Program-made: the position numbers and the translations under genes | Assembly: GCA_016218825.1 (NCBI GenBank) | Contig: JACRCV010000063.1 | Location: 1,070-65,069 of the forward strand | Direction: 5' to 3' | Length of the DNA: 64,000 bases | Source: Deltaproteobacteria bacterium | GTDB lineage: Bacteria > Myxococcota > XYA12-FULL-58-9 | In this document: in pieces, positions 13,865 to 46,403 of the stretch | Numbering within the stretch: position 1 is the first letter of the stretch | Layout of the letters: each line of letters starts with the position of its first letter | Notes under the pieces: model-generated | The model's database searches: none | What the model saw: the letters and a program-made list of their open reading frames with translations, nothing else | What the model was told of the DNA's origin: nothing

Positions 13865-15939
<2,075 letters not shown>

Positions 15940-24221: not shown

Positions 24222-26980
24222 CGCTGCACCCGCAGGCGCGCGCCTGGTCACCGCTGTTGTCGGTCGGGCTGGTCGTCGCTGCTTCGTGTGGCGTCGAGCT
24301 CGGCGTACCCGCGGACGCCAATGTCCGCTGCACCGGCGCCGCCGAGTGTCCGAAGGGCATGGTGTGCAATCCCCGGGGCGCCTGCGTCGACCCGAGGTCG
24401 CCGCTGGCGACTCTGCCGCCGGCCGCGGTGCTGGTGTCGCCGGCCGACGGGCTCGTGACCAGCGAGAGCGGCGCCGCCAGCGCGTTCACCGTCGTGCTCA
24501 CGGCCCCACCGACGGCGGACGTCACTGTTCGATTGGCCTCGGACTCCCCGGCCGAGGCCAGGGTCGAGCCGGAGGCCCTGGTGTTCACGGCGAGCGACTG
24601 GGATTCCCCGAAGCGCGCGTTGGTCCTCGGAGTCCTCGACTGCGCCGCCGACGGCGACGTGGCCTTCACCATCGTCACCTCCGCCGCCGCCTCCGGTGAT
24701 CCCGACTACGACGGCCTCGAGGTGCAGGACGTCGGCGGCACCAACCTCGGCGACCGGGCGGCCGGCGTGCTCGTGACCCCCACGACCGGCCTCGTGACCG
24801 ACGAGGACGGGGCCGCTGCGACCTTCTCGATGGCGCTCGCCTGCCCGCCGGCGGGCCTGGTCGAGGTGACCGTGGCCGCGAGCGACGACAGTGAGGGCCG
24901 GGTCGACGGCACCGGCCTCGTGGTGTTCGGCGAGCAGAACTGGGACATCGCCCAGACCGTGTCGGTCCGCGGCCAACGCGACTGTGCTGCCGACGGCGAC
25001 ATCAGCTACGAGGTGATCAGCACCGTCATCGCCGGCGACGACCCCACGTACGACGCGATCCCGGTGCCGGCCGTGGCGGTCTCGAATGGCGACCGCAGCG
25101 CCGCCGGGGTCGAGGTGACGCCGGCCGCTGGGCTCGAGGTGCGCGAGGATGCGGGGCTCGACACCTTCGTCGTCGCGCTCACCTGTCCGCCCGCAGCCGA
25201 CGTCACCATCGACCTCGAGAGTGAGGACCTCACCGAGCTGCAGGTTTCGCCGGCGAGCCTGCGCTTCACGCCGTCCGATTGGCAGCTCGCCCGCCTCGTC
25301 GCGGTCACCGGCGTTCCCGACTGCGAGGCCGACGGCGATCGGACCGTGAACATCCTGACCGGCGCCGCCGCGAGCTCCGATCCGAGCTACGACGGGTATG
25401 ACGCGCCCGACATCCAGGTGACCACCCTCGACGTGCTCGAGCCCGGCGTCATCGTGACGGTGTCGCCGCCCTCAGGCCTGGAGATCTTCGAGGGGTCGCT
25501 CGGCGCCTTCTCTGTGACGCTTGCCTGCGCTCCCGATGCCACAGTCACGATCGGCCTCGTGACCTCCGACGCCGGCGAAGGCATCGTCGCTCCGGCGTCG
25601 TTGGAGTTCACGCCGGAAGACTGGTTCGTGCCGCAGGGCGCGGTCGTCACCGGGCAGACTGACGGCCTCCTCGACGGCGACGTCGCTTTTGAAGTGTTGG
25701 TCGAGCCCGCGCTGAGCGCCGATCCCGACTACCAGGGGGTCGATGGTCCGGACGTGACCGTGACTACTCACGACGCTGACGCCCCGGGTTTCATCGTCAC
25801 GCCCACCGGCGGTGTCACCTCGACCGAATCGACCAGCGACCCTGATCCGACCTTCACGGTCGTCTTGACCGCCGCTCCCGTTGCCGACGTGACGCTCACC
25901 CTGACGAGCAGCGACTCCAGCGAGGGGAGGCCGACACCCACCAGCCTCACCTTCACCGCCGGCAACTGGCAATCGCCCCAGACCGTCGCCGTCCAGGGCC
26001 AGGACGACGCGGTCGACGACGGCCCCATCGACTACTCGATCATCCTGTCGACAGCGACGTCGGCGGATCTCAACTACGACGGCCTCGACCCGGTGGATGT
26101 GGCGTGCCGCAACAGCGACAATGACACCGCCTCCATTCGCACCTACCAGCTGATGGCCAACCAACTGAAGGTCGAGTACACCGGGGCGACGGCTGTCACG
26201 TTCTACGTCGAGATGTCCAGTGAGCCGACGGCCGACGTTCACGTGCCGATCGTCGTCGACAAGCCGAACGAGGCCCAAGTGGATCAGCCGGAGTTGGTCT
26301 TTACCGCCGCCAACTGGGCCAGCGACCAGCCGGTGGCGGTCACCGGCCGGAATCTCGGTCCCATCGACGGCTGGGACTACTTCACCGTCCTGATCGGTCC
26401 AGCGACGAGCGTCGATCCGGTTTACGACGGCATGACCGGGATCCCATCCAGGCCGGGAGCCAATCGCGACAGCGGCGCCAAACGCTTGTTCGTCACCGGC
26501 GCCATCGTTGACGGCCGTTTGGGCCAGGGCGCGGACGCGAGCCCTGCGCACGCCGACGCCCTGTGCAACGCGGACGCTCTCAAGCCGTCGACCGGCACTT
26601 ACAAGGCGCTCATCGGCGAGTGTGTCAACGGCGCGACCGCCGGGGAGAGGGTCGCGGTGGGGAACGCGGTCTGTCCGGTGCAGAAGAACTGGGTGCTGCG
26701 CAGCAACTGGGGCTACACCCAGGCCAACGGCACGATGCCTTACGCCAGAACCGACGCCCAGGGGCTCTTCCTCGCCCCACTCACGGACAACAGCGGCTTG
26801 ATGGACTACTTCTGGAGCGGGCTCAACTCCGACTGGACGCCGAGCGCCGATTGCAGCCACTGGGGCAGCACCACCGGGTCTGGCGCGGTCGGCGGTTACA
26901 CCGCCTGGTGGACCTTGCCGCTCGGGTCGGAGCAACAGGACTGCGGCGCCATGCGCCGTTTGTTCTGCGTCGAGCAATAG
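24218..26980 (+). CDS. large surface lipoprotein B (tandem paralogue of A)
   Basis: ATG at 24218 overlaps the stop of A (ATGA). Signal AASCG, the same Cys-knot motif, seven repeats, and a near-identical C-terminal domain (GAKRLFVTGAIVDGRLGQ...YKALIGEC...NWVLRSNWGY...LFCVEQ). Aligns with A along its whole length. Confidence 0.7.
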   Translation: MTLHPQARAWSPLLSVGLVVAASCGVELGVPADANVRCTGAAECPKGMVCNPRGACVDPRSPLATLPPAAVLVSPADGLVTSESGAASAFTVVLTAPPTADVTVRLASDSPAEARVEPEALVFTASDWDSPKRALVLGVLDCAADGDVAFTIVTSAAASGDPDYDGLEVQDVGGTNLGDRAAGVLVTPTTGLVTDEDGAAATFSMALACPPAGLVEVTVAASDDSEGRVDGTGLVVFGEQNWDIAQTVSVRGQRDCAADGDISYEVISTVIAGDDPTYDAIPVPAVAVSNGDRSAAGVEVTPAAGLEVREDAGLDTFVVALTCPPAADVTIDLESEDLTELQVSPASLRFTPSDWQLARLVAVTGVPDCEADGDRTVNILTGAAASSDPSYDGYDAPDIQVTTLDVLEPGVIVTVSPPSGLEIFEGSLGAFSVTLACAPDATVTIGLVTSDAGEGIVAPASLEFTPEDWFVPQGAVVTGQTDGLLDGDVAFEVLVEPALSADPDYQGVDGPDVTVTTHDADAPGFIVTPTGGVTSTESTSDPDPTFTVVLTAAPVADVTLTLTSSDSSEGRPTPTSLTFTAGNWQSPQTVAVQGQDDAVDDGPIDYSIILSTATSADLNYDGLDPVDVACRNSDNDTASIRTYQLMANQLKVEYTGATAVTFYVEMSSEPTADVHVPIVVDKPNEAQVDQPELVFTAANWASDQPVAVTGRNLGPIDGWDYFTVLIGPATSVDPVYDGMTGIPSRPGANRDSGAKRLFVTGAIVDGRLGQGADASPAHADALCNADALKPSTGTYKALIGECVNGATAGERVAVGNAVCPVQKNWVLRSNWGYTQANGTMPYARTDAQGLFLAPLTDNSGLMDYFWSGLNSDWTPSADCSHWGSTTGSGAVGGYTAWWTLPLGSEQQDCGAMRRLFCVEQ

Positions 26981-27775: not shown

Positions 27776-27789
<14 letters not shown>
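27157..27789 (-). CDS. secreted Myxococcus-type cysteine-rich repeat protein (TIGR02232-like)
   Basis: Signal peptide LLLLGFALSTLSTC, then repeats CGDGVAQGAEPCDGADL...C, CGNGNAQQREQCDGSDLDGATC. The start overlaps the end of the sigma54 activator gene by 14 nt. Confidence 0.55.
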
Positions 27790-29131
<1,342 letters not shown>

Positions 29132-30420: not shown

Positions 30421-31968
30421 ATGGGGACCGGTCTTCGGGAGAGCTTGAGACTGAGGCGGCCGGCGCTGGTGTTGGCGGTGGTCGGCGGCTGCCTCATCTT
30501 TCTCGGCTTCTGCGGCTGCGACCAGTTCTACCTCGAGTGGGTGGCGCTGGTGCCGGTGCTCTGGGCGCTCGACGACGACAGTCTGAGTCACAAGGAGGCG
30601 ATCGGCATCGCCTGGTTGTTCGGCTTTGTGGCGCACCTCGGGGCCTACACCTGGATCACCGGGATGTTGATGGACTTCGGCTACCTGCCGTGGCCGCTCG
30701 CGATCTTGGTGTACGCGCTGTTGTGTCTGGCGCAGAGCGTGTTGTTCGCGGTCTGGGGCTACGGGGTCTGGCGGTTGAAGGTCGGCCACCGCGTGTCGAT
30801 GGTGTGGTCGACGCCGGTGATGATGGTGATCGCCGAGTGGCTGGTGCCGCAGCTGTTCCCGTCGTATCTGGCGAACTCGCAGTACCGCCAGATCTACTTC
30901 ATCCAGAGCGCCGAGATCTGGGGGCCGCTCGGGCTGACCTTCATCCTGACGATGTTCTCGGGGTTGGTCTACGAGACCTTGGCGTGGCGCTGCCGCCGTC
31001 GGGGGCGGGCGCCGGTCTTCGCCGCCGCGGTCTTCTTGGGGCTGTTCGCCGCCAACCTCGCGTACGGCTACGTCGCGGTCGCCAACATCGACGACACCGT
31101 GGCGCACACCGACACCCGCCTGAAGGTCGGCATCGTCCAGGTGAACATGGGGATCTACGAGAAGGACGACAACCCGGCCGAGGGGACGCGCCGGCACCGG
31201 GAGCAGAGCCTCGAGCTCGAGGCGCAGAAGGTCGACCTGATCGTTTGGCCGGAGTCGGGCTACAACTACGGTATCGCCGACAGCACCAAGAACGTCGCGC
31301 GTCAGGTGTTGGGGCCGGTCACCACGCCGCTGATCTTCGGCGCGGTGCGGATCGCGAACGGGCCGAAGGGCCGCGAGCCTTACAACTCGGCCTTCCTGGT
31401 CGACGGCGACGGCACGGTGCTCGGCACCTACGACAAGACCTACCTGCTGGCGTTCGGCGAGTACCTGCCGTTCGGGGACTGGCTGCCGATCCTCTATCGA
31501 TGGTCGCCACACACCAGTCACTTCCGGCGCGGCACCCACACCAAGCCGTTGACGTTGAACGGCGTCAGCTACGGCCTCTTGATCTGCTACGAGGACATCC
31601 TCCCGGGGTTCGTGCGCCAGGTGATGGACCACGAGCCGCAGGTGCTGGTGAACGTCACCAACGACGCCTGGTTCGGGAAGAGCCGCGAGCCGCGGATCCA
31701 CTTGGCGCTGGCGCTGTTTCGCGCCGTCGAGCATCGGCGTTTTCTGGTGCGCGCCACCAACACCGGCATCAGCGCCTTCGTCGACCCGGTCGGTCGCATC
31801 TTGTCCGAGACCCCGATCTTCGCCCGCGCCAACCTCGTCGAGACCATCACGCCGCTCTCGGGGCGCACGCTCTACGCGTCGTATGGCGATTGGGTCGCGG
31901 TGCTCTCTGTCGCGCTGCTCATGTGGTGGGCGCGCCAGGTGGTGGTGCGGCGGCTGCGGCGCGGCTGA
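30421..31968 (+). CDS. lnt: apolipoprotein N-acyltransferase
   Basis: Multi-TM N-terminal domain plus a C-N hydrolase domain with catalytic Glu-Lys-Cys context (VWPESGY ... LICYEDIL); 515 aa. Confidence 0.85.
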   Translation: MGTGLRESLRLRRPALVLAVVGGCLIFLGFCGCDQFYLEWVALVPVLWALDDDSLSHKEAIGIAWLFGFVAHLGAYTWITGMLMDFGYLPWPLAILVYALLCLAQSVLFAVWGYGVWRLKVGHRVSMVWSTPVMMVIAEWLVPQLFPSYLANSQYRQIYFIQSAEIWGPLGLTFILTMFSGLVYETLAWRCRRRGRAPVFAAAVFLGLFAANLAYGYVAVANIDDTVAHTDTRLKVGIVQVNMGIYEKDDNPAEGTRRHREQSLELEAQKVDLIVWPESGYNYGIADSTKNVARQVLGPVTTPLIFGAVRIANGPKGREPYNSAFLVDGDGTVLGTYDKTYLLAFGEYLPFGDWLPILYRWSPHTSHFRRGTHTKPLTLNGVSYGLLICYEDILPGFVRQVMDHEPQVLVNVTNDAWFGKSREPRIHLALALFRAVEHRRFLVRATNTGISAFVDPVGRILSETPIFARANLVETITPLSGRTLYASYGDWVAVLSVALLMWWARQVVVRRLRRG

Positions 31969-32043
31969 CGCGAAAGATTTTCCAGCCAAACGCGCCGGCC
32001 CCGCTGTAGGTCCAGCGTACGACCCGAACCCGAGGAGACTGCA

Positions 32044-32778
32044 ATGAAGAAAGAGATCTTCCTCTCTTGTTGGATCAGTGTCGTCGCCGGTGGCTGTCTG
32101 TCGTTGCAGGGCAACGTCGAGGATGGCGCCAGCACCGAGCCGACGCCGATGTTCTTGCACGCTCTCGAGCTCGAGCCGGGCTGCTACGTCACGCCCCCGG
32201 TGGCCGCCGCCGACCCGTCGGCAACGCCGGACATGTTGAGCGCGGCCCGCCAGATGCAGGATCTGAACGTGCAGTACAACGCCCAGTTCGTGGCGCTGGT
32301 GGTCGAGCGGGTGCTCGAAGACGCTTCGGCGCCGGCGTGGTCGTTCACCTATGAGATGCCCGGGCCGATCACCATGGTCCAGTCCGTCGAGCCGACCCGG
32401 CGCGAGCCCGAGGCGAGCGAGTTCGTGCTCACCACGACGCGGAAGGGCTTCGAGCAGGTCGATCCGAGCGGCCTGCAACAGTATGTCGAGCGCACCATGG
32501 TCGCCCGCGGCCACGCGGATCTGCACCAGTCGACGCTCGACCTCGAGGGCACCTCGTATCGCTGGAACGACAACAGCTTCGAGGTCCGCTACCTGGGCAT
32601 CAGCCGCAGCGTCGGCGACGACGGCCAGCCGACCTGGCGCCAGGCGCTGTTGAGCTTCCTGCGCGGCTGCGACCCGGTGACCGGCGTGAGCTTCGAGGCC
32701 ACCGCCTCGACCGAGTTGCGCTGCTGGAGTCGCGACCGCCAGCCGGTGTCGTGCATCGGCCTGGATCTCTGGCGGTAG
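32044..32778 (+). CDS. hypothetical lipoprotein
   Basis: GAGGAG RBS; signal plus lipobox SVVAGGC. Confidence 0.55.
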   Translation: MKKEIFLSCWISVVAGGCLSLQGNVEDGASTEPTPMFLHALELEPGCYVTPPVAAADPSATPDMLSAARQMQDLNVQYNAQFVALVVERVLEDASAPAWSFTYEMPGPITMVQSVEPTRREPEASEFVLTTTRKGFEQVDPSGLQQYVERTMVARGHADLHQSTLDLEGTSYRWNDNSFEVRYLGISRSVGDDGQPTWRQALLSFLRGCDPVTGVSFEATASTELRCWSRDRQPVSCIGLDLWR

Positions 32779-32852
32779 GCTCTCGCGCCCGTCCGGCCGG
32801 CATTGCCTCCGTCCCGAGTTGCGTGCAGATTCGGGAAAACTCGGGAGCGCCC

Positions 32853-33560
32853 ATGCCCGCCATCGTCAGCCTGTCGAACGTCGCCAAGGACTACCCGCTC
32901 GGAAAGACCGTGGTGCGCGCCCTGCGCGGCGTCAGCCTGGCGATCGAGAAGGGCGAGTTCGTCGCCATCGCCGGCCCGTCGGGGAGCGGCAAGACCACGC
33001 TCTTGAACCTCATCGGCTGCGTCGACGTGCCGAGCTCCGGCGAGGTGACGATCGACGGCCGCTCGACCTCGGCGTTGCACGACCGCGAGCTGACGAACCT
33101 CCGCCTGCACTCGCTGGGCTTCATCTTCCAGACCTTCAACCTGGTGGCGGTGTTGAACCTCTATCAGAACGTCGAGTTCCCGCTGCTGTTGAAGGGGCAT
33201 CACACCGCCGCCGAGCGCAAGAAGAAGGTCGAGGCGATGATCGACAAGGTCGGGCTGACGCCGCAGATCGGGCAACGGCCGAACGAGCTCTCCGGCGGCC
33301 AGCGGCAGCGGGTGGCAATCGCCAGGGCGCTGGTCACCGAGCCCAAGATCGTGCTCGCCGACGAGCCCACCGCGAACCTCGACTCGGTGACCGGGCAGAA
33401 CATCATCGATCTGATGAAGGCCCTGAACGACACCTTGACCACGACCTTCATCTTCTCGACCCACGACCAACGGGTGATATCGCACGCCCGCCGCGTGATT
33501 CGCCTCGTCGACGGGGTGGTGGAAGACGGCGCCGCCCAGGCCCGCGGTGCAGGAGGCTGA
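32853..33560 (+). CDS. ABC transporter ATP-binding protein (LolD/MacB-type)
   Basis: Walker A GPSGSGKTT, Q-loop, signature LSGGQRQRVAIARAL, Walker B ILADEPT and H-loop FSTHD. Confidence 0.9.
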   Translation: MPAIVSLSNVAKDYPLGKTVVRALRGVSLAIEKGEFVAIAGPSGSGKTTLLNLIGCVDVPSSGEVTIDGRSTSALHDRELTNLRLHSLGFIFQTFNLVAVLNLYQNVEFPLLLKGHHTAAERKKKVEAMIDKVGLTPQIGQRPNELSGGQRQRVAIARALVTEPKIVLADEPTANLDSVTGQNIIDLMKALNDTLTTTFIFSTHDQRVISHARRVIRLVDGVVEDGAAQARGAGG

Positions 33561-33561
33561 G

Positions 33562-35649
33562 ATGCGGGGCTCGATGTCTCTCGTCCTGGTGCGCACCGCG
33601 CTCAGGAACCTGGTGGCGCACAAGGCCAAGACCTCGATCGTCGGCTCGATCATCTTCTTCGGCAGCTTCCTCGTGGTCTTCGGCACCGCGCTCTTGGACA
33701 GCATCGACCGCGGCATGTCGGGGAGCATCACCGAGAGCTTGGCGGGGCACCTCCAGATCTACGCCAAGGACGCCCGCGACAAGCTGCAGCTCTTCGGCGG
33801 CGGCTTCATGGGCGGCGACGACTTCGGCGCCATCCGCGACTTCAAGCCGGTGCGCGAGATCCTCGAGGCGCTCCCCGAGGTCAAGGCGGTGGTGCCGCTC
33901 GGGCTGCAGATGGTGACGGTGATGGGCGGCAACGAGATCGACCAGACGCTCGAGGAGCTGCGCCAGGCGGTGAAGAGCGGCGACGACGACAAGATCCACA
34001 GCCTGGCGGTGAAGCTGCGCGCGATGGCCGACGACCTGCTCCCCGACCTCGAGCGCCGGCGGCACATCGCCCGCGACAAGGCCGAGATCGAAAACCAGCT
34101 CCGAGACCTGGCGCGCGTCCGCAGCGACGCGTTCTGGGCCGAGCTCGCGAAGGACCCCGAGCGCGGTCTCACCTTCCTCGAGGCGCACGTGGCGCCGCTG
34201 GTGTTGGACGGCCGCTTCCTCTACTTCCGCAACGTCGCGACCGACCTGACGCGCTTCCCGCGGCTCTTCGACCGCTTCGAGCTCGTGGACGGCCAGATGG
34301 TGCCGCCGGGCGAGCCCGGGATCCTGCTCGCGAAGCGAACCTACGAGACCTGGGTCAAGAACCCGGTGGCGCGCGATCTCGACAAGATCTACCAGGGCCT
34401 GACGACCCAGAACCTGAGCATCGCCACCGCCACCGAGCTCGCCGACGCCGCCCGCCGCCTGCCGCGCCAGTACCGCCGCATCAGCTTCCAGCTCGCGGTC
34501 GAGGACGCGCGCACGGTCGAGCGCGAGCTGCGCCGCCTGCTCCCTGAGAGCACGGGCGATCTAGGGGCGCTGTTGCAGGACTTCTTGCGGGTCGACGACG
34601 ACAACGCCGTCGGCCGCTACCGGTTCTTCTACGACGTCATCGCGCCGCGTCTGCCGCTCTACACCGTGCCGGTCGGCTCGGACGTGATCTTGCGCGCGGT
34701 CACCAAGACCGGCTACTTCAAGGCGGCGAAGGTCAAGGTCTGGGGCACGTTCCGCTTCAAGGGTCTCGAAGACTCGGACCTGGCGGGCGCCAGCAACCTG
34801 ATCGACCTGCTGACCTTCCGCGAGCTCTACGGCATCATGACCGACGACAAGCAACGCGAGCTCCAGGGCATCCGCGACGCGGTCGGGGTCAAGGACGTGG
34901 CGCGCGAGGACGCCGAGGCCGCGCTCTTCGGTGGCGACGCCAGGCCCTCCAGTGCGGACGCGACCCCGGGGACGCTCGGGGCGATCGACGCCGTCGCCGA
35001 GATCGCGGCGGCCAAAGCCCCGGCGCCGGCCGTCACCTTCACGCCCGAGGAGGTGGACAACGGTTTGACGATCAGCGCCGCGGTGATCCTCAAAGACCCG
35101 AGCCGGCTGCACCAGGGGCTCGCCGCGGTGCAACGGGCGATCGACGCCGCCAACCTCAACCTGCAGGTGGTGGACTGGCAGACCGCGGCCGGCATCCCCG
35201 GGCAGCTGGTCACGGTGATGCGCCTGGTGCTCTACCTCGCGATCTTCATCATCTTCCTGGTGGCGCTGGTGATCATCAACAACGCGATGCTGATGGCGAT
35301 GGTGGAGCGCATCGGCGAGATCGGCACGATGCGGGCGATCGGCGCCCAGCGCTCGCTGGTGATGTGGATGTTCATCGTCGAGATCTTGACGCTCGGGGCG
35401 ATCGCCGGCACCGCCGGGGCGCTCGCGGCGTTGGCGGTGGTCTCCTGGCTCGGCCACGTCGGCATCCCGGCGCCGAACGACCAGCTGCAGTTCCTGTTCT
35501 CCGGACCGCGCCTGTACCCCGCCGCCGGGCTCGAGAACCTCCTGCTCGGCTGCGCCTCGGTGTGCCTCGTCAGCCTGGGCTCGACGCTCTACCCGGCGCG
35601 GATGGCGACCCGGGTGCAGCCGGTGGTCGCGATGCAGGCGAAGGAGTGA
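33562..35649 (+). CDS. FtsX-family ABC permease with ~500-aa periplasmic domain (LolC/E- or MacB-like)
   Basis: AGGAGG precedes the ATG; N-terminal TM, large extracytoplasmic domain, and a C-terminal 3-TM FtsX module (ERIGEIGTMRAIGAQ...). 695 aa. Confidence 0.8.
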   Translation: MRGSMSLVLVRTALRNLVAHKAKTSIVGSIIFFGSFLVVFGTALLDSIDRGMSGSITESLAGHLQIYAKDARDKLQLFGGGFMGGDDFGAIRDFKPVREILEALPEVKAVVPLGLQMVTVMGGNEIDQTLEELRQAVKSGDDDKIHSLAVKLRAMADDLLPDLERRRHIARDKAEIENQLRDLARVRSDAFWAELAKDPERGLTFLEAHVAPLVLDGRFLYFRNVATDLTRFPRLFDRFELVDGQMVPPGEPGILLAKRTYETWVKNPVARDLDKIYQGLTTQNLSIATATELADAARRLPRQYRRISFQLAVEDARTVERELRRLLPESTGDLGALLQDFLRVDDDNAVGRYRFFYDVIAPRLPLYTVPVGSDVILRAVTKTGYFKAAKVKVWGTFRFKGLEDSDLAGASNLIDLLTFRELYGIMTDDKQRELQGIRDAVGVKDVAREDAEAALFGGDARPSSADATPGTLGAIDAVAEIAAAKAPAPAVTFTPEEVDNGLTISAAVILKDPSRLHQGLAAVQRAIDAANLNLQVVDWQTAAGIPGQLVTVMRLVLYLAIFIIFLVALVIINNAMLMAMVERIGEIGTMRAIGAQRSLVMWMFIVEILTLGAIAGTAGALAALAVVSWLGHVGIPAPNDQLQFLFSGPRLYPAAGLENLLLGCASVCLVSLGSTLYPARMATRVQPVVAMQAKE

Positions 35650-35654
35650 GAGCC

Positions 35655-36998
35655 GTGCGCATGCTGTTGTTCGTCGCCTTCCGGAACCTGCTGCAGTCGC
35701 GGCGGCGCTCGCTGCTCCTCGGCGTCGCGCTCGGTATGGTGTCGCTGCTGTTGGTGCTGATGCTGGCGCTGAGCCAAGGGCTGCACGACAACATCTTCGA
35801 GAGCGCCATGGTGTTGTCCTCCGGCCACGTGAACATCGGCGGCTTCTACAAGGCCAAGCCCCAGGACGCGTTTCCGCTGGTGACCGACTGCAAGAAGATC
35901 CGCAAGCTGGTCCACGACGAGGTCAAAGGCGTCGCCCGCATCATCGACCGCGGCCGCGGTTGGGCCAAGCTCATCAGCGAGAGCTCGAGCATGCAGACCG
36001 GGATCCACGGCATCGACGTCGACGAAGAGGCGGCGCTCCTGGCGACGCTGCAACCCGCCCTGGAGCGGGAGTACGTCGACGGCGGGCGCGCCGTGGTGCT
36101 CGGAGATCTGAAGCGCCTGCGAGAGCCGAACACCCTGATGTTGTTTGCCGGGCAGGCGAAGCGGCTGCGGGTCGGGGTCGGCGACTCGTTGACGCTGACC
36201 GCCGAGAGCTTCGGCGGGGTCACCAACACCGTCGACCTGCAGATCGTCGCGGTGATGAAGGACGTCGGCTTCATGTCGAATTGGAGCGTGTTCGTCCCGA
36301 AGAAGGTGTTGACCGAGCTCTACCAGCTCGCCGACGACACCACCGGCTGGATCCTCTTGTACCTCGACAATCTCGACGAGCGCGCCGCGGTGATCACCCG
36401 GCTGCGCGCGGTGCTGACGCAGGCGGGCTACACCTTCATGGAGCCGGAGTCGAATCCGTTCTGGATGAAGTTCGAGACCGTCGCCGGCGAGGACTGGGTG
36501 GGACAGAAGATCGACCTCACCACCTGGGAGGACGAGACCTCGTTCTTGAAGTTCGTCACCCAGGCGCTCGACTCGATCTCGTTCTTCCTGATCGCGATCC
36601 TCCTGGTGATCATCGTCATCGGCATCATGAACGCGATGTGGATCGCGGTGCGCGAGCGCACCCAGGAGATCGGCACCCTGCGCGCCATCGGCATGCAGCG
36701 ACGGCGGGTGTGGGTGCTCTTCGAGCTCGAGGCGATGCTGCTCGGACTCGCCGCGACCACCGTCGGCACCGTCGCCGGCGTCCTGCTGGCGCGCGCCGTC
36801 AACGGCCTCGAGATCGAGGTGGGGATCGAGGCGCTGCGCGTGATCTTGATGAGCGACACCTTGCGCCTGAGCGTCACCTTCGGGCAGCTCGTCGGCCCGA
36901 TCATCGTATTTACCCTGGTCGCGATGTTGGCGGCGCTCTGGCCCGCGGTGCGCGCGTCGCGCCTGCCGCCGGTCACCGCGATCCAACGTCTGCTGTGA
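35655..36998 (+). CDS. second FtsX-family ABC permease (paralogue)
   Basis: AAGGAG upstream with GTG (35655) or ATG (35661) start; N-terminal TM, ~270-aa periplasmic domain, C-terminal FtsX module (RTQEIGTLRAIGMQ...). Confidence 0.8.
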   Translation: MRMLLFVAFRNLLQSRRRSLLLGVALGMVSLLLVLMLALSQGLHDNIFESAMVLSSGHVNIGGFYKAKPQDAFPLVTDCKKIRKLVHDEVKGVARIIDRGRGWAKLISESSSMQTGIHGIDVDEEAALLATLQPALEREYVDGGRAVVLGDLKRLREPNTLMLFAGQAKRLRVGVGDSLTLTAESFGGVTNTVDLQIVAVMKDVGFMSNWSVFVPKKVLTELYQLADDTTGWILLYLDNLDERAAVITRLRAVLTQAGYTFMEPESNPFWMKFETVAGEDWVGQKIDLTTWEDETSFLKFVTQALDSISFFLIAILLVIIVIGIMNAMWIAVRERTQEIGTLRAIGMQRRRVWVLFELEAMLLGLAATTVGTVAGVLLARAVNGLEIEVGIEALRVILMSDTLRLSVTFGQLVGPIIVFTLVAMLAALWPAVRASRLPPVTAIQRLL

Positions 36999-37005
36999 GG
37001 CGTCG

Positions 37006-37779
37006 ATGCTGCGAACCGCGCTGGTCTGCTCTTTGATGGCGTCGGCCCCGGGCCTGGCGCGGGCGGCGTTGTCGGACGCCGAGATGCTCGAGGTCCTGAA
37101 GACCATCGACGTCCGGCAGCGCAACTCCGGCGACTACAAGACCCTGGTCTACATCGAGCAGAAGGAGCGCGACAAGAGCGACCTGCTCTACGAGGCCGTG
37201 GTCTACAGGCGCGACGAGAACGACCAGCTGGTGATCTTGTTCACCAAGCCGAAGGCCGAGGCCGGCAAGGGCTACCTGCGCATCGACAAGAGCCTGTTCC
37301 TCTACGACCCGGCGGTCGGCAAGTGGGAGCGACGCACCGAGCGCGAGCGCATCGGCGGCACCAGCTCGCAGCGCGCCGACTTCGACGAATCCCGGCTCGC
37401 CGAGGAGTACACCCCGACCTACGTCGGTGAGGAGAAGCTCGGGGTCTACACCGTGCACCACCTGCTGTTGAAGATGAAGGAGGGCGCCGACGTCGCCTAT
37501 CCGATCACCCACCTGTGGGTCGACGCCGCCACCCACAACGTCCTGAAGCGGACGGAGATGGCGCTGTCGGGTCGGTTGATGCGCACCGTGTATTACCCGC
37601 AGTGGAACAAGGTCTGGAGCGAGAGCAAGAAGGACAGCGTCTACTACCCCAAGGAGATCCGGGTCTTCGACGAGGTCGAGAAGGGCAACCGCACCACCGT
37701 CGTGCTGCGCGAGATCGATCTGAGAAGCCTCGACCCCAACATCTTCACCAAGGCCTGGGTCGAGAGCCGCAGCCGATGA
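37006..37779 (+). CDS. LolA-like outer-membrane lipoprotein-sorting family protein
   Basis: Signal peptide, then a ~230-aa sequence resembling the LolA_like / lipoprotein-sorting fold family (YKTLVYIEQKER...LRIDKSLFLYDP...WVDAATHNVLKRTEM). Assigned from sequence pattern and the ABC context. Confidence 0.55.
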   Translation: MLRTALVCSLMASAPGLARAALSDAEMLEVLKTIDVRQRNSGDYKTLVYIEQKERDKSDLLYEAVVYRRDENDQLVILFTKPKAEAGKGYLRIDKSLFLYDPAVGKWERRTERERIGGTSSQRADFDESRLAEEYTPTYVGEEKLGVYTVHHLLLKMKEGADVAYPITHLWVDAATHNVLKRTEMALSGRLMRTVYYPQWNKVWSESKKDSVYYPKEIRVFDEVEKGNRTTVVLREIDLRSLDPNIFTKAWVESRSR

Positions 37780-39272
37780 GGCGCGCCGCTCTTCGGACCG
37801 GGCTCGCGGCGCTCGCGAGCCTGGTGTGGGCGCCGGCAGCGTTGGCCCAAGATCTGACCGCACCGCCAACCGACGACGAGCGCGCCCGCGAGGCCGAGCT
37901 CTTCGGCGCGCCGAGCGCCCCAACCCCGGACCAAGGCGCCGCGCCCGAGGGCGACAGCGACCAGAAGCCGGTCGTGGAAGCGCCCGTGGCGCCCGTGGCG
38001 CCCGTGGCGCCAGCGGCGCAGCCGACGCCGCCGGCGTCGAACACCGAAGAGCGAATGGCCGCGGCGCTCGTGAGCCACGACGCCACGACCGCGCTCGGTG
38101 GCCTGTTGTACTTGCGGTTGGACTACAACGCCCTCGAGCACGGCAAGCCGAAGACCTTCCTGGTCTCGAGCCCGAGCCTCTTCGACGTCTACCTCGACGC
38201 CCGGCCCAGCGAGCACGTGCGCGGCTACGTGCGCGGCCGGTTGAAGCACGACGCCACCGTGACCTCGGGGTCGACCGATGCGTTCGGCAACGTGCGGCAG
38301 GGGAGCACGGTGCTGCTCGACCAGCTGTGGCTCAAGTTCGACGTCGGCGATCGCGTCTGGGTCACCGCGGGGCGGCAGGCGATCCGCTGGGGCTCGGGGC
38401 GTTTTTGGAACCCGACCGACTTCATGAACCAGCAGGTGCGCGATCCGCTCGCGGTCTTCGACGAGCGCGAAGGCGTCACCCTGGTGAAGGTTCATTTGCC
38501 GATCGAGGCGCTCGGCTGGAACTTCTACGCCCTCGGCAACTTCGAGCGGGCCGATCGGCCCGACGAGGTCGGCGGCGGCTTGCGCGCCGAGCTGTTGTTC
38601 GAGTCGATCAACACCGAGCTCGCGCTCTCGGCGGCGAAGACCAGCCACGGCCCGACCCAGTTGGGCGCCGAGGTCTCGGCGGGGGTCGGGCTCGTCGACC
38701 TGCGCGCCGAGGCCGGGCTCCAGAAAGGGGTCAGGAGCCCGTTCTATCGCGGTGAGCTCGACCCGGCGCGGCTCGTGATCCCCGAGCCCTACAGCCGCGA
38801 CGGCGATTGGCTGCTGCAGGCGACCGCCGGCGCCGAGCTGGCGCTCAAGTACTCGGACGAGGACAACGTCACCGTGGGTGCCGAGGCGTTCTACAACGGC
38901 GCCGGTTACGCCGACGCCGAGCTCTATCCCTGGCTGTTCGCGAACCAGCGCTACACCCCGCTCTACGCCGGCCGGCGCTACGCCGCGCTCTACGCGCTGT
39001 TGATGGCGCCGGGCAGCTGGAACGACACCACGTTCATCTTGAGCGGCATCGGCAACCTCTCCGACCGGTCGTACCTCGCGCGTCTCGACTACCGGGTGCG
39101 GGTCTTGACCTACCTCGACGTGAACCTCTACGGCGCCTACCACTTCGGGCAAGTCGGCGAGCTGCATTACAGCTACGCGCTCGAGCCTTTGCCGGTGGAC
39201 GGCCTGCGAAACGGCATCGTGATCGTGGCGCCCCGCTTCGACGTCGGCGTCGGGTTGCGGGCGGCGTTTTGA
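37776..39272 (+). CDS. outer-membrane beta-barrel protein (hypothetical)
   Basis: ATG overlaps the stop of the LolA-like gene (ATGA); signal peptide ALASLVWAPAALAQD; alternating amphipathic beta-strand pattern; C-terminal ...VGVGLRAAF aromatic terminus typical of OMPs. Confidence 0.5.
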   Translation: MRRAALRTGLAALASLVWAPAALAQDLTAPPTDDERAREAELFGAPSAPTPDQGAAPEGDSDQKPVVEAPVAPVAPVAPAAQPTPPASNTEERMAAALVSHDATTALGGLLYLRLDYNALEHGKPKTFLVSSPSLFDVYLDARPSEHVRGYVRGRLKHDATVTSGSTDAFGNVRQGSTVLLDQLWLKFDVGDRVWVTAGRQAIRWGSGRFWNPTDFMNQQVRDPLAVFDEREGVTLVKVHLPIEALGWNFYALGNFERADRPDEVGGGLRAELLFESINTELALSAAKTSHGPTQLGAEVSAGVGLVDLRAEAGLQKGVRSPFYRGELDPARLVIPEPYSRDGDWLLQATAGAELALKYSDEDNVTVGAEAFYNGAGYADAELYPWLFANQRYTPLYAGRRYAALYALLMAPGSWNDTTFILSGIGNLSDRSYLARLDYRVRVLTYLDVNLYGAYHFGQVGELHYSYALEPLPVDGLRNGIVIVAPRFDVGVGLRAAF

Positions 39273-40850: not shown

Positions 40851-41684
40851 CTAGAGCACAGGTGGCGAGGCCGCGGCAAACAGCGCCCGGCGCTCGTCGA
40901 CCCGGCCCACCGCGAGCAGGATGCCGAAGATGATCGCCTCCGGCCGCGGCGGACAGCCGGGGATGAAGACGTCGACCGGCAGGGCCTCGGCGACGCCGCC
41001 GGCGCTCGCGTAGCTTTGCCCCGCGATGCCGCCGGAGCAGGCGCAGGCGCCGACCGCGATCACCAAGCGCGGCTCGGGGACCGCCTCGTAGGTTCGGCGC
41101 ACCGCGGTCGCGAGGTTGCGGGTCACGGGCCCGGTGACCATCAGGCCGTCGGCGTGACGCGGCGAGGCGACGAAGTCGACGCCGAGGCGCCGGACGTCAT
41201 AGACCGGATTCAACAGCGCCGTCAGCTCCCAGTCGCAGGCGTTGCACGAGCCCGAATCGAGGTGGCGCAACGCGAGCGACCGGCCGAGCACGCGTCGGAT
41301 CTGTCCTGCGACCTGCCCGGCGGCCGGCGGCGCCGTGGCCGCGGTGGCTCGGCCGTCGGCGTCGCTCGCCACCTGGAGCATCAGGCTTTCGCGTCGTCGA
41401 GACGCGAGCTCGACCTGGCGACCGAGCTCGACGCCGCGATCCGGCGCGCCCTCGGCACAGCGGCCGCAGAACACGCACCGCCCGAGGTCGATGCTGTAGG
41501 CCGCCGTCGATCCGCCGCCGATCGCGCCCGTCGGACACACCGAAGGCGACGGCAGCAGGTCAACCTGGGCGCCCGGCCGGACCTCGGGAGCGCCGCGAAA
41601 GCGCTCGGGGGGCTTCGCGGGCGTCGCCGGATAGGCGGAGGTCACGACGCCGGTGCGCAAGCTGTTGAGGATGGCGGTCAGCAT
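40851..41684 (-). CDS. fused HycF-like ferredoxin / HycG-NuoB-like [NiFe]-hydrogenase small subunit
   Basis: N-terminal CPTGAI...CVFCGRCAEGAP is one 4Fe-4S motif with the partner motif degenerate. The C-terminal ...GSCNACDWE...VGACACSGG...PGCPP matches the NuoB/HycG cluster-binding pattern. AAGGAGG precedes the ATG at 41682-41684. Confidence 0.7.
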   Translation of the reverse strand: MLTAILNSLRTGVVTSAYPATPAKPPERFRGAPEVRPGAQVDLLPSPSVCPTGAIGGGSTAAYSIDLGRCVFCGRCAEGAPDRGVELGRQVELASRRRESLMLQVASDADGRATAATAPPAAGQVAGQIRRVLGRSLALRHLDSGSCNACDWELTALLNPVYDVRRLGVDFVASPRHADGLMVTGPVTRNLATAVRRTYEAVPEPRLVIAVGACACSGGIAGQSYASAGGVAEALPVDVFIPGCPPRPEAIIFGILLAVGRVDERRALFAAASPPVL

Positions 41685-41706
41685 GCAGAGCCCTCCTTGT
41701 GGGTTC

Positions 41707-43329
41707 TCACCGGTCGGTGCACGAGTAACAGAGCTCGAAGCTCTTATTGACGAGCGGAAAATCGGGAATGATGGAGGTCTGGGCCGCGAGGGGTACCGCC
41801 GGCCAGTTGGCGTAGCTCGCCGAGCGCAGGTGGTAGCGGTCGATGCGGCCGGCAGCGTCGGCGCGCAGCCAGTGGATCGCGGCGCCGCGCGGCGACTCGA
41901 TCGCGCTGATGCCGATCCCCCCCGCCGGCAGCTCCTCGGGCATCGGGGCGCAGATCGGGCCCGGCGGCACGTCCGCGAGCATCGCCTGCAGCAGCCGGAT
42001 CGACTCCCGCGCCTCGGCGACGCGCACGTTGAGGCGGGCGTGAACGTCGCCGTCGGTATCGGTCGCCACCGCCACCGCCAACCCGGTCGCGCTCCCATAC
42101 GCCGCGTGCGGGTGGTCGCGCCGCGCATCGCGGTTGACGTCGCTGGCGCGCGCCGCCACGCCGGTCACGCCGAGGGCGATGGCGTGCTCCCGCGCCAACA
42201 CCCCGGTGGTATCGAGGCGGTCGACGACCGACGGGTTGTTCTCGATGCGCGCCACCAGGCTCGTGAGCCCGGCCGCGGTCGCCGGCAACAGCGCGTCGAT
42301 GCCGCGGCCCGAATCGGCGGTCAGATCGAGGCGCGCGCCGCCCGGCGTCACCAGGCCGCGCAAGAAGCGGTTCCCGGCCAGGCGCTCGGCCACCTGCTGC
42401 ACCGCCTCCTTCAGCCGCAGGCCGGCGGAGGTGCCATAGTGGTAGCTGGCGCCGGCGGCGATGTTGCCGATGTCGCCCAGGTGGTTGTAGAGCCGCTCGA
42501 GCTCGAGCGCGAGGCTCCGCAGCACCCGTGCCCGGCGCGGCACCTCGACCCCGGCGACCTGCTCGACGGCCTCGCAGAAGCCGAGCGCGTGCGACACCGA
42601 GCACACGCCGCACATCCGCTCGGCGATGTAGAACGCATCGCCGAGCGTGCGCCCCTCGATGCGTTTCTCCAGCCCGCGGTGGGTGTAGAACAGCCGCGCC
42701 TCGAGGTGGAGCACGCCCTCGCCGACGGTGCTGAAGCGGAAGTGTCCGGGCTCGATGATGCCGGCGTGGATCGGGCCCACCGGGACCTCGAGCACGCCTT
42801 CGCCCTCCACCCGCAGATGCGGGAGCTCCTCGCTCGGCTCTACGGCAGGGCGCTCGCGGGCGTCGAAGTCCTTGCGCAGCGGATAGCGGCCCTTCGGCCA
42901 GCCGTCGTGAACCACCAGCGACCGCGGGTCCGGGTGATCGGTGAACACGATCCCCAACAGGTCTTGCGCCTCGCGCTCGTGCCAATTCGCCGCCGGCACC
43001 CGGTCGGAGATGGACGGCAGCGCCGGGCGCGCCGGGTCGAGCGCCGCCACCAGCGTCACGAAGAGGTCGGGGAGCGCCCCCGGGCCGGTGGCCGGCTCGA
43101 AGACGTAGCGAACCTTGAGATCCCTCTCGGCGGTCGCGCGCTCATCGGTCGCCACCAGCGTCGCCAGGCTCAAGCCGGCGGCACCCAGGTCGGCGGTCGC
43201 CTGCTGCACGTCGGCGGCGCGATGCAGGCGCAACGTCAGATCTTGGCGGCGCGGCCCGGGCTCGAAGGTCGCCAAAGCGCCGACCTTCGCCTCGAGCTCG
43301 CGCGCCAGTGTTTGGGTCGCCTCAGCCAA
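41707..43329 (-). CDS. group 4 [NiFe]-hydrogenase large subunit (NuoC-NuoD fusion, HycE/HyfG-like)
   Basis: PVGPIHAGIIEPGHFRF...THRGLEK, N-terminal Ni-ligand motif RMCGVCSVSH and C-terminal motif ELCYSCTDR with no C-terminal extension. The TTG start overlaps the end of the upstream gene by 8 nt. Confidence 0.8.
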   Translation of the reverse strand: MAEATQTLARELEAKVGALATFEPGPRRQDLTLRLHRAADVQQATADLGAAGLSLATLVATDERATAERDLKVRYVFEPATGPGALPDLFVTLVAALDPARPALPSISDRVPAANWHEREAQDLLGIVFTDHPDPRSLVVHDGWPKGRYPLRKDFDARERPAVEPSEELPHLRVEGEGVLEVPVGPIHAGIIEPGHFRFSTVGEGVLHLEARLFYTHRGLEKRIEGRTLGDAFYIAERMCGVCSVSHALGFCEAVEQVAGVEVPRRARVLRSLALELERLYNHLGDIGNIAAGASYHYGTSAGLRLKEAVQQVAERLAGNRFLRGLVTPGGARLDLTADSGRGIDALLPATAAGLTSLVARIENNPSVVDRLDTTGVLAREHAIALGVTGVAARASDVNRDARRDHPHAAYGSATGLAVAVATDTDGDVHARLNVRVAEARESIRLLQAMLADVPPGPICAPMPEELPAGGIGISAIESPRGAAIHWLRADAAGRIDRYHLRSASYANWPAVPLAAQTSIIPDFPLVNKSFELCYSCTDR

Positions 43330-44794
43330 GGATGATCTCCGTGGCGCGCATCAGCACCTGGTCGAACACCGCCGGGATGGCGAGCCCGAAGAGCACCATC
43401 ACCGCCACCAAGAGCAGCATGCCGAAGAGCGGCAGCCGCGCCTCCGGCCCTCGGTCAGCGCTCGGGCCGGCGACGCCGAAGGCCATTTGCCCCACGTGGT
43501 GGATGAGCCCGGCGAAGATGATCACCACCATCACCAGAAAGACCGCGACCGTCAGGTAGCGACCGGCCGCGAGCCCGGCGCTGATGATCAACAGCTCGCT
43601 GATGAAGATCGAGAACGGCGGCGTGCCGGCCAACGAGAACGCGCCCATCATCAGCAGGGTCGCGGCCCAGGGCGCGATGCCCAAGAAGCCGCGGATGATC
43701 CGCATGTCACGGGTGCCGTAGCGGCCGATCACGTCGCCGGCGATCAAGAACACCAGGGCCTTGGTGACCCCGTGGTTGATCACGTGCAGCAGGGCGCCGT
43801 AGGTCCCGACCCGACCGCCGAAGCCGAGGCCGAGCGCGATGATGCCGACGTGCTCGACGCTGTGGTAGCCGAGGAGGCGCTTCAGGTCGTGCTGCACCAG
43901 GATGAAGGGGGTCGCGACGACCACCGACACCAGGCCAAAGAGGAGCAGCAGGCCTTCGCTGAGCTCGGGGCCGCAGGCGCCGCGCGCGATGGTGTGAAAG
44001 CGAATGATCCCGAACAACGCACACTTGATGAGGGCGCCCGACAACAGCGCCGACACCGGCGTCGGCGCCTGGCTGTGGGCATCGGGGAGCCACAGGTGCA
44101 CCGGGGCGAGGCCGGCCTTGGTGCCGTAGCCCACGATCACGAAGATGAAGCCGATGCGGATGATCCCGGGGTCGAGGCGGCTCGAGATCGCGGCGATGCT
44201 CGACCAGTTCATCGCACCGGCAAACACGTCGCCCTGGGCGTGCGCCGCGGCGCCGTACACCAACACCGTGCCGAACAGGCCGAAGGAGATGCCGATGGTG
44301 GTGACGATGATGTACTTCCACGCCGCCTCGAGGCCGAGCTTGTCGCCGTGGAAACCGACGAGCAGGGCCGAGGTGATCGTCGTGCCCTCCATCGCGATCC
44401 ACAAGATCCCGAGGTTGTCGGCGAGCACGGTGACCACCATCGTCGCGATGAAGCCGTGGACCAGCGCGTAGTAGTAGTGCAGGCGGTCGGCGCGCATGTG
44501 GCCGCGGGCGAGCTCGGCGCGCATGAAGCCGCCGCTGGCGATCGACACCGCCACCGCCAACAGACCGACGAGCAGCAGGAACACCACCGCGACGGCGTCG
44601 GCGCGAAAGGTGCCGAGCGCGCTCACCGGGCCGACGGTCGCGACCTCGAAGGCGATCGCCAGCCCCAAGACGAGAACCGCCAAGGCGCTCGTGAGATCCA
44701 GCGCCGCGAGCAGGCGTCGGTCGCGGCCGAGCAACATCACCAGGCCAAAGACGGCGGGGACGGCGGGGCAGAGCCAGAGGAGGTTCGAGGTCAT
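43322..44794 (-). CDS. NuoM/N-like antiporter-type membrane subunit (HyfF/HycC-like)
   Basis: WLPDAHSQAPTPVSALLSGALIK and LLGYHSVEHVGIIALG; about 14 TM helices; ATG 2 nt after the upstream stop. Confidence 0.75.
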   Translation of the reverse strand: MTSNLLWLCPAVPAVFGLVMLLGRDRRLLAALDLTSALAVLVLGLAIAFEVATVGPVSALGTFRADAVAVVFLLLVGLLAVAVSIASGGFMRAELARGHMRADRLHYYYALVHGFIATMVVTVLADNLGILWIAMEGTTITSALLVGFHGDKLGLEAAWKYIIVTTIGISFGLFGTVLVYGAAAHAQGDVFAGAMNWSSIAAISSRLDPGIIRIGFIFVIVGYGTKAGLAPVHLWLPDAHSQAPTPVSALLSGALIKCALFGIIRFHTIARGACGPELSEGLLLLFGLVSVVVATPFILVQHDLKRLLGYHSVEHVGIIALGLGFGGRVGTYGALLHVINHGVTKALVFLIAGDVIGRYGTRDMRIIRGFLGIAPWAATLLMMGAFSLAGTPPFSIFISELLIISAGLAAGRYLTVAVFLVMVVIIFAGLIHHVGQMAFGVAGPSADRGPEARLPLFGMLLLVAVMVLFGLAIPAVFDQVLMRATEIILG

Positions 44795-44796
44795 CG

Positions 44797-45453
44797 TCAG
44801 CCCTTGAGGCTCTCGAGATCGGCGATGTCGGCGTCGACGCTCGAGCGCACCCGCAACAACAGGATCCCCATCACCAGCGCGCCCAAGACCACGTCGAGGA
44901 TGACGCCGATCTCGATGATCAGCGGCATCCCCTGGCTGATCGCCATCGCCGTGAAGAAGATGCCGTTCTCCGAGGCGAACAGGCCGACCATCTGCACCAA
45001 CGCCTTGCGGCGCGAGGCCATCACCAGCACGCCGATGAGCGTCAGGGCGATGCCCACCGGCAACGCGTTGCCGGTGATGGTCTGGCGCACCGGGCCGAGC
45101 GACGCCGCGAGGTGGAACGCCAGCACCACGATGCCGGCGGCGAACGCCAGCGTGACGTTGATCGGGATCACCGCCTCGATGTCGCGCCGGATCTGGATGC
45201 GGCGGATCACCCAGAGCAACAACCAGGGGAGGAGGACGCCCTTGGCGACGATGGTGATGCCGGCGATGATCCACAGATCGACGTTGCCGGTCGCGGCGGC
45301 GAGGACCGCGCCGGCGATCCCGAGGAAGACCGCCTGCACCGCCACCGCGTAGATCGCCCGATACAGCTGGCCGGCGGCGAGGATGAGCAGGGTGGTGAAG
45401 AGCAACAACGCCCCGAGGACGTCGATGAGGCGGGTGGCCAGCTCGACGCTCAT
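44797..45453 (-). CDS. small membrane subunit (HyfE-like)
   Basis: 218-aa polytopic protein. Its position and size match hydrogenase-4 component E. The track 940-aa ORF is a run-on; the real ATG is at 45451-45453. Confidence 0.55.
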   Translation of the reverse strand: MSVELATRLIDVLGALLLFTTLLILAAGQLYRAIYAVAVQAVFLGIAGAVLAAATGNVDLWIIAGITIVAKGVLLPWLLLWVIRRIQIRRDIEAVIPINVTLAFAAGIVVLAFHLAASLGPVRQTITGNALPVGIALTLIGVLVMASRRKALVQMVGLFASENGIFFTAMAISQGMPLIIEIGVILDVVLGALVMGILLLRVRSSVDADIADLESLKG

Positions 45454-46400: not shown

Positions 46401-46403
46401 GAC

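Follow-up and report, generated by a model that had tools for sequence, protein, structure and literature searches.

It is only partly understood how hydrophobic molecules get across the aqueous periplasm and what accepts them at the outer membrane of the many bacteria that lack LolB. The characterized type VII ATP-binding cassette (ABC) systems each have a dedicated periplasmic partner: EnvC, LolA, MacA or TesA (PMC12646458). In Borrelia burgdorferi, genes BBJ23-BBJ29 encode a MacB-like type VII ABC complex, a LolA-like protein and an Omp85 barrel, a grouping described by computation only (PMC13078400). Export of an envelope component is the role suggested for a module of DUF1302, DUF1329, BNR and resistance-nodulation-division (RND; COG1033) proteins found in Pseudomonas, Shewanella and others (bioRxiv 072470). 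LolA-like proteins have been proposed as carriers of aryl-polyene lipids (bioRxiv 2020.12.19.423268), and genes of the LolA-like family PF17131 are found beside MMPL transporter genes and are controlled by TetR (PMC10434189); Treponema pallidum TP0789, of the same, TP_0789-like family, is a predicted lipoprotein (PMC5015957). The nearest analogues of the system considered below (the Borrelia BBJ cluster, the DUF1302/DUF1329/RND module and the PF17131-MMPL operons) are themselves uncharacterized or only proposed. Here we analyze a stretch of 64,000 nucleotides (the window) from a myxococcotal genome, Deltaproteobacteria bacterium GCA_016218825.1 (contig JACRCV010000063.1). Five of its genes, encoding an ABC ATPase, two FtsX-type permeases, a LolA-superfamily carrier and an outer-membrane barrel, form a cassette that is probably a self-contained export relay across the envelope, built on the Lol principle, separate from Lol itself and carrying something other than classical lipoproteins.

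A conserved five-gene cassette

The G+C content of the window is high (~70%), and genes were therefore called by third-position G+C content and checked with family searches. All seven plus-strand genes of the region are present as the original prediction had placed them (Table 1). That prediction read them together as one locus for lipoprotein maturation and sorting, in which lnt, encoding apolipoprotein N-acyltransferase, and a lipoprotein gene precede a Lol-type module. Conservation defines a smaller unit. Relatives were collected in a scan with one genome per species, which returned 350, and the 80 best loci were taken; synteny was scored by tblastn with the proteins of the window, and completeness was counted over the 55 loci with sufficient upstream DNA.

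Among these 55 related loci of Myxococcota and Bradymonadales, the cassette is complete and collinear in 52, in the order ATPase, permease 1, permease 2, carrier, barrel, and all five genes are found in 54. The two different permeases are kept as a pair in 52/55 loci, and in 66/68 the gene immediately before the barrel gene encodes the carrier. This arrangement is far beyond chance. It occurs also in a cultured organism, Vulgatibacter incomptus (CP012332, ~3.038-3.044 Mb). In the window the five genes are tightly packed on the plus strand, and the ATGA stop/start overlap that had been noted between the last two is real, coupling the carrier and barrel genes at 37776-37779.

The exceptions among the 55 loci comprise one internal inversion, one insertion and one locus without ABC genes. 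In the first, the segment from permease 1 through permease 2 to the carrier is inverted (L030:4953-11467); in the second, ~2.7 kb is inserted between the ATPase and permease 1 genes (L034:2048-11473). In the third, the carrier and barrel genes stand as a pair beside ImuA/ImuB-like genes, which were identified by eye (L077:5700-11236).

The two upstream genes do not share this conservation. In tblastn searches relaxed to an E value of 0.1, lnt lies near the cassette in only one of the 80 loci (L060, on the opposite strand, ~6 kb downstream), and a homologue of the 244-residue lipoprotein gene in none. A functional linkage of the cassette to these two genes is accordingly rejected, and with it the proposed association of lnt with a Lol module. 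Since synteny keeps the five genes and not lnt, the functional unit is 32853-39272 and the adjacency of lnt is peculiar to this genome: the neighboring lnt is an unrelated housekeeping gene that sits beside the cassette by coincidence. The case also cautions against reading a functional link into one genome in which lnt happens to be adjacent.

Table 1. Coordinates of the cassette genes, the two upstream genes and the conserved segments, all numbered in the window.
Feature	Coordinates	Strand	Description
lnt (apolipoprotein N-acyltransferase)	30421-31968	+	TIGR00546, 263.3 bits (cut-off 132.9); LNT_N PF20154 and CN_hydrolase PF00795
Putative lipoprotein, 244 residues	32044-32778	+	N-terminal signal; ...VVAGGC lipobox-like site
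ABC ATPase, 235 residues	32853-33560	+	Single nucleotide-binding subunit; PF00005, 115 bits
FtsX-type permease 1, 695 residues	33562-35649	+	C-terminal FtsX domain (Pfam); ~510-residue periplasmic domain
REDAEAALFGG, permease 1 residues 448-458	34903-34935	+	Start of disordered periplasmic loop
FtsX-type permease 2, 445 residues	35661-36998	+	PF02687, 69 bits; PF12704 MacB_PCD, 36 bits
LolA-superfamily carrier, 257 residues	37006-37779	+	PF17131 LolA_like (TP_0789-like)
Outer-membrane beta-barrel, ~18 strands, 498 residues	37776-39272	+	Unnamed family; AlphaFold2 model
REAELFG, barrel residues 38-44	37887-37907	+	Disordered N-terminal periplasmic tail
Most conserved barrel stretch, ...GRQxIRWGSGRFWNPTDF..., residues 197-233	38364-38474	+	Long non-strand loop

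Components of the cassette and a shared motif

The catalytic motifs of the ATPase are intact (Walker A GPSGSGKT, LSGGQ, Walker B IVLADE and the H-loop), and its median identity to orthologues is 68% (55 loci). Among NCBIfam models LolD (TIGR02211) scores highest, with 228.5 bits, under the cut-off of 307.75, and DevA (212.6 bits), MacB (203) and FtsE (201) follow closely; identity to Escherichia coli LolD is 42%.

One ATPase with two different FtsX permeases is indeed the pattern of this locus, as first read. Hydropathy places the first two transmembrane segments (TM1 and TM2) at residues 26-44 and 555-573 of permease 1 (publicly annotated from 33562, with a GTG at 33547 as another possible start), and at 18-36 and 305-323 of permease 2. 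The periplasmic domains, predicted at ~500 and ~270 residues, come to ~510 and ~268 by hydropathy and AlphaFold2, that of permease 2 being of the MacB_PCD type. The two proteins had also been called paralogous. This holds for the membrane part at the C terminus (34% identity over 119 residues), whereas the periplasmic domains are unrelated. Against the LolC/E model TIGR02212, permease 1 scores 47.7 and permease 2 70.7 bits, with a cut-off of 362, and in both cases only the C-terminal transmembrane region contributes. Both permeases align to the solved relatives YtrF, LolE, LolF, LolC, MacB and FtsX over TM2-4 only, with 22-25% identity to E. coli LolC/E over that part. The FtsX C-terminal domain, the four-TM topology, the large periplasmic domain that separates TM1 from TM2 and the separate nucleotide-binding domain (NBD) together define the complex as a type VII ABC system.

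Structures of permease 1 and the barrel were modeled with AlphaFold2 and compared with solved folds by Foldseek. The permease 1 model (predicted local distance difference test score, pLDDT, 86.4) has the four-TM type VII architecture, with TM1 in a helix at 21-61, a periplasmic part at ~62-544 and TM2-4 within 545-683. Two large helical insertions interrupt its periplasmic domain in the model, at ~125-213 and ~258-363, and residues 457-487 form a disordered loop there. Pfam returned nothing consistent for this domain across 41 orthologues and recognized only the C-terminal FtsX domain. The top solved folds are LolE (9rlc_E, Foldseek E 1.8e-13) and LolC (9rld_C, target-normalized template modeling score 0.74), followed by MacB, YtrF, HrtB and YbbP, every one of them a type VII ABC protein acting at the periplasmic face; the superposition on LolC/LolE leaves ~300 extra residues of permease 1 uncovered. 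The original prediction had named permease domains that match peptide or MacB-type efflux instead as grounds for its refutation; at the level of the fold the outcome is in its favor, as the model of permease 1 is nearer to LolE/LolC than to MacB. The part of the window encoding the first insertion (33934-34200, permease 1 residues ~125-213) gives non-significant matches to apolipoprotein A-I/A-IV profiles (E 0.3-0.85), which may reflect only amphipathic-helix composition.

The LolA-type character proposed for the fourth gene product is borne out at the level of profiles: PF17131 matches residues 72-253 with 115.6 bits (gathering threshold 30), and the carrier profile matches PDB 3buu, "LolA superfamily protein NE2245", over residues 26-254 (E 9e-14). 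The latter is the carrier's only solved sequence relative. PF17131 is present in all 120 carrier homologues listed, and the carrier is among the most conserved components (median identity 66%, 70 loci). Its signal peptide ends in ...ARA. Because the orthologous carriers have ordinary signal peptides of the signal peptidase I type and no lipobox (32/33), the carrier is taken to be a soluble periplasmic protein. The many invariant Arg, Glu and Asp residues of the carrier, for example in the KWERRTERERIGGT stretch, may mark a head-group site. The LolA family itself (PF03548) gave no match to the carrier at E<=0.01. A sequence link to E. coli LolA was likewise tried and rejected, with an hhalign probability of 1.65% for the orthologue profile and no BLASTP similarity. 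The literature on PF17131 and TP0789 yielded nothing functional.

For the last gene product, which has no Pfam, NCBIfam or PDB sequence match, AlphaFold2 predicts the expected outer-membrane barrel with confidence (pLDDT 86.3), with ~18 strands between residues 105 and 497. The protein has a signal peptide and ends in ...RAAF, a terminal Phe. Its first ~100 residues comprise the signal peptide and then a Pro/Ala/Glu-rich disordered tail (pLDDT 34-55). Top Foldseek matches are AlgE, OccAB1/OprD-type channels and general porins (E ~4e-10). Weak matches occur among family members to Porin_O_P (11/40), DUF1302 (PF06980; 6/40, best E 1e-3) and Alginate_exp (3/40); the barrel of the window itself has no DUF1302 match. 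The most conserved stretch is modeled as coil (pLDDT 86-95) between strands 194-201 and 234-243 and is probably a lumen or constriction loop; T197, G199, Q201, G206, F210, W211, N212, P213, D215, F216, L225, D229, R231 and G233 are invariant. A profile search of 1.84 billion cluster representatives found 1905 clusters (at 50% identity) with E<=1e-3 and 582 with E<=1e-30. The homologues are all unnamed "hypothetical proteins", mostly from metagenome-assembled genomes (MAGs) of Myxococcota, and include proteins of Vulgatibacter incomptus and Bradymonadales. One longer homologue (P0028) has cytochrome c domains (PF13442, PF00034), and several of five others (P0377, P0382, P0394, P0400, P0433) carry 190-250 extra N-terminal residues before the region covered by the family profile.

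A short motif, here called LFG, with the overall pattern R-[DE]-x-A-E-x-x-[LM]-F-G, is common to permease 1 and the barrel. In permease 1 it takes the form R-x-D-A-E-x-x-[LM]-F-G and occupies one aligned column in nearly all 41 orthologues, with F456 invariant. In the barrel tail its form is R-[ED]-x-x-[LIMF]-F-G, in up to five copies that all precede the barrel body; F43 and G44 are invariant in 40 orthologues. Counts were made with the core pattern [ED][AEDSQ]x[LIMFV]FG. It matches the barrel 114 times in 80 loci, with at least one copy in 71/80, and in 40 aligned barrels 66 matches fall in the first 150 residues and none in the remainder. In permease 1 it occurs 53 times across 56 loci, and it is absent from the other three proteins (ATPase, permease 2, carrier). 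As background, flanking open reading frames (ORFs) gave 9 matches in 186,034 residues. Because the motif is confined to flexible segments of the inner-membrane donor and the outer-membrane acceptor, we propose that the permease 1 loop and the barrel tail may offer the carrier a common docking site. Alternatively, the tail could, if extended, span much of the periplasm and contact the inner-membrane complex directly.

A transport model, its cargo and the alternatives

In the relay that we favor, two copies of the ATPase and one of each permease would form a complex of the type VII (MacB/Lol/FtsX) fold. ATP-driven mechanotransmission would lift a hydrophobic or amphiphilic cargo from the outer leaflet of the inner membrane, and the complex would pass it to the soluble LolA-fold carrier. 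The carrier would then bring the cargo to the dedicated 18-strand barrel, which would insert or release it, and the LFG motif would recruit the carrier at donor and acceptor alike. The relay, with its inferred direction of transport and order of hand-off, fits the rule that characterized type VII systems have dedicated periplasmic partners, and it fits the absence of a MacA-type adaptor and of TolC.

As cargo, we consider a conserved molecule of lipid-like or otherwise hydrophobic nature most likely, ahead of bulk triacylated lipoproteins. Four points speak against the latter: the lack of a conserved linkage to lnt or a lipoprotein gene, a frequent upstream MarR gene, the pairing of PF17131 with MMPL and TetR elsewhere and the aryl-polyene proposal. 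The MarR-family gene (~150 residues) is co-oriented with the cassette and directly upstream of the ATPase gene in 23/50 loci (L008, L020, L023, L025, L031, L033, L035-L037, L039, L043, L044, L047-L051, L053, L059, L063, L068, L069, L071); when all flanking ORFs of the 80 loci were clustered, MarR was the only recurrent neighbor family. Vulgatibacter incomptus has instead a divergent gene for a 365-residue MarR-domain protein (L081:3838-4935). The original prediction had cautioned that something other than classical lipoproteins may be the cargo, and this caveat fits the context of upstream MarR genes and of MMPL/RND exporters as partners of PF17131 elsewhere.

Several points weigh against the relay as drawn. 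The window itself has no MarR gene by tblastn or by a profile search of six-frame translations, and the closest relatives (L001-L005) also have none upstream. No biosynthetic or catabolic family that might point to the cargo recurs beside the cassette in the 80 loci. The fold matches of the modeled barrel are generic (template modeling score ~0.5), the docking idea is drawn solely from how the motif is distributed among the sequences, and the predicted fold of permease 1 is nearest to the lipoprotein extractors LolE and LolC, which leaves room for a lipoprotein cargo. We found no paper in the literature that describes the five-gene cassette.

A bolder version, which we hold only tentatively, is that the cassette represents an undescribed, phylum-wide Lol-like pathway of Myxococcota and Bradymonadales. 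Here one conserved non-lipoprotein lipid or lipophilic molecule of the outer membrane would be moved by a type VII ABC extractor with heterodimeric permeases, a soluble carrier of the LolA fold and a barrel of a new family, and the short helical LFG motif would govern carrier docking and hand-off. If true, this would be a new answer to the question of what receives outer-membrane cargo in bacteria without LolB.

The alternative that survives best, although we judge it unlikely, is a true second Lol pathway, in which some of the mature triacylated lipoproteins are drawn out by the complex and taken up by the LolA-fold carrier, and the barrel replaces LolB; in a variant, the barrel might flip lipoproteins onto the cell surface, as a Slam-type translocon does. 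Structurally, permease 1 is best matched by LolE and LolC bound to lipoproteins, the permeases are a heterodimer served by one ATPase as in LolCDE, the top-scoring ATPase model is LolD, and the carrier has the LolA-superfamily fold. Moreover, lnt and a lipoprotein gene lie immediately upstream in this MAG, and the Borrelia cluster of MacB-like, LolA-like and barrel proteins has been proposed, on computational grounds, to move lipoproteins (PMC13078400). However, every Lol equivalog cut-off lies far above the scores obtained, a relation of the carrier to E. coli LolA is not detectable in sequence, and the lnt and lipoprotein genes are not conserved with the cassette. A MarR gene upstream in nearly half of the loci would be unusual for housekeeping lipoprotein sorting, and the PF17131 relatives pair with MMPL exporters. 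"Second Lol pathway", the term of the original prediction, was therefore an overstatement, given the LolD and LolC/E scores and the absence of Pfam LolA. The cassette falls short in every sequence-based test of Lol membership and should not be filed as LolCDE-LolA. The labels "lipoprotein release system permease" and "outer membrane lipoprotein-sorting protein" that its proteins bear are inherited.

Uptake of hydrophobic nutrients, with the barrel admitting a substrate, the carrier shuttling it and the ABC complex inserting or importing it, is improbable. Aromatic or lipophilic compounds are frequent signals for MarR-type regulators. Some members of the barrel family weakly resemble substrate channels of the DUF1302, OprP and AlgE types, and DUF1302/DUF1329 pairs occur in fatty-ester fitness screens and in hydrocarbon-degradation clusters. 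The DUF1302 similarity is marginal, however, with no match in the barrel of the window, and catabolic genes are not conserved beside the cassette. In addition, no importer is present among the type VII ABC transporters in the solved relatives found (PMC12646458).

About as improbable, and if anything slightly more so, is a mechanotransmission switch, in which the ABC complex only activates or positions a periplasmic partner (the LolA-fold carrier, or the barrel by way of its tail), for instance by gating the barrel, as in FtsEX-EnvC and YbbAP-TesA. FtsEX and YbbAP do regulate or feed periplasmic partners without exporting through a duct (PMC12646458). A motif common to the barrel tail and permease 1 would permit direct contact between the two, and the helical insertions of permease 1 have no counterpart in LolC/E. 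Against this, the strict pairing of the carrier and barrel genes and their translational coupling suggest a stoichiometric hand-off pair. The LolA-superfamily fold, moreover, is a fold of hydrophobic-ligand carriers in its characterized members.

A MacAB-TolC-type drug or peptide efflux pump is the least credible of the alternatives: a MacB_PCD domain is present in permease 2, the structural matches include MacB and MarR proteins are classic efflux regulators, but no gene for an HlyD/MacA adaptor or a TolC-family protein lies in the cassette or among its neighbors in the window and none recurs in the flanks of the 80 loci, the ATPase, unlike that of MacB, is not fused to a permease, and a porin-like barrel takes the place of a TolC duct in the outer membrane.

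Neighboring genes and comparison with known systems

The translation of lnt shows the stretches WPES, YDKTYL and LICYED, which we take to hold the Glu-Lys-Cys triad of the enzyme. Family searches with the 244-residue protein encoded between lnt and the ATPase gene gave no match, and Pfam found no other Lol-related gene among 30 other proteins of the window. A scan of the 29-40 kb region found no promoter-like site, and terminator-like sites occurred there at close to the number expected by chance.

In two relatives (L004, L005), a divergent minus-strand ORF of ~300-355 residues lies directly upstream of the ATPase gene; it has a beta-strand-like pattern and a C-terminal aromatic residue and may encode another outer-membrane protein. 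Upstream of the lnt side of the region, a divergent gene (27776-29131, minus strand) encodes an FHA-domain sigma-54 activator (FHA, Sigma54_activat and HTH_8). Sigma-54 activator genes also occur a few kilobases downstream of the cassette, in varying positions, in L013, L014, L026, L030 and L081. Farther upstream, 21486-24221 and 24218-26980 (plus strand) are tandem paralogues of 911 and 920 residues with a stop/start overlap and a C-terminal DUF1554, and with no annotation outside that domain.

Two separate complex-I/Mrp-like membrane modules flank the region (10344-15945 and 40851-48404, both minus strand). One consists of three consecutive Proton_antipo_M subunits. The other, which resembles an energy-converting hydrogenase or a formate-hydrogenlyase-type complex, comprises a NuoB-like protein, a fused protein resembling the 30-kDa and 49-kDa subunits and the [NiFe]-hydrogenase large subunit, two Proton_antipo_M proteins, a NuoH-like protein and a 218-residue protein without a family match. 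Adjoining this hydrogenase-like module is a gene for a 625-residue multiheme cytochrome with MtrC/MtrF-like domains and cytochrome c7/c3-type motifs (48474-50351, minus strand). Beyond it, also on the minus strand, lie two very large ORFs, one of 1240 residues with no Pfam match (50923-54645) and one of ~2351 residues (54715-61770).

The cassette is a compact five-gene system in which each gene has a clear structural role, and its barrel family is large (~1900 clusters) and nameless. If its cargo proves to be a lipid or a class of surface lipoproteins, the cassette would be a new branch beside Lol, Lpt and Mla, and the "lipoprotein release system" label would be corrected.

The cassette shares with E. 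coli LolCDE-LolA-LolB one ATPase gene, two different permeases of the FtsX fold, a permease fold nearest to LolE/LolC, a soluble periplasmic carrier of the LolA superfamily and the logic of donor, carrier and acceptor. Unlike Lol, it has a permease with a periplasmic domain of ~510 residues and helical insertions, its acceptor is an integral 18-strand barrel in place of the lipoprotein LolB, and across genomes it shows no linkage to genes for lipoprotein maturation. Borrelia BBJ23-BBJ29, which like the cassette is known from computation only, has a homodimeric permease, an Omp85 barrel of the BamA-TamA type and extra chaperone genes; the cassette has heterodimeric permeases, a porin/AlgE-like barrel and a shared linear motif.

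The DUF1302/DUF1329 module likewise joins an outer-membrane barrel, a LolA/LolB-like protein and an inner-membrane exporter. An RND/MMPL protein energizes that module, whereas an ABC complex energizes the cassette, and the carrier of the cassette belongs to PF17131, not DUF1329. The operons of Porphyromonas and Prevotella that contain PF17131, MMPL and TetR genes have the same carrier family, an inner-membrane exporter and a repressor of the small-molecule type (PMC10434189), but their partner is an MMPL protein with separate ABC ATPases, and no equivalent barrel has been described. The carriers of the cassette are soluble, in contrast to the predicted lipoprotein TP0789. With MacAB-TolC the cassette has in common the type VII ABC fold and the MacB_PCD domain, here in permease 2; it lacks the MacA adaptor, TolC and a fused NBD, and has a soluble carrier and a porin-like barrel instead. 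The principle is one already known; new here are the combination of genes, the family to which the barrel belongs, the permease domain of outsized length and the motif that permease and barrel share.

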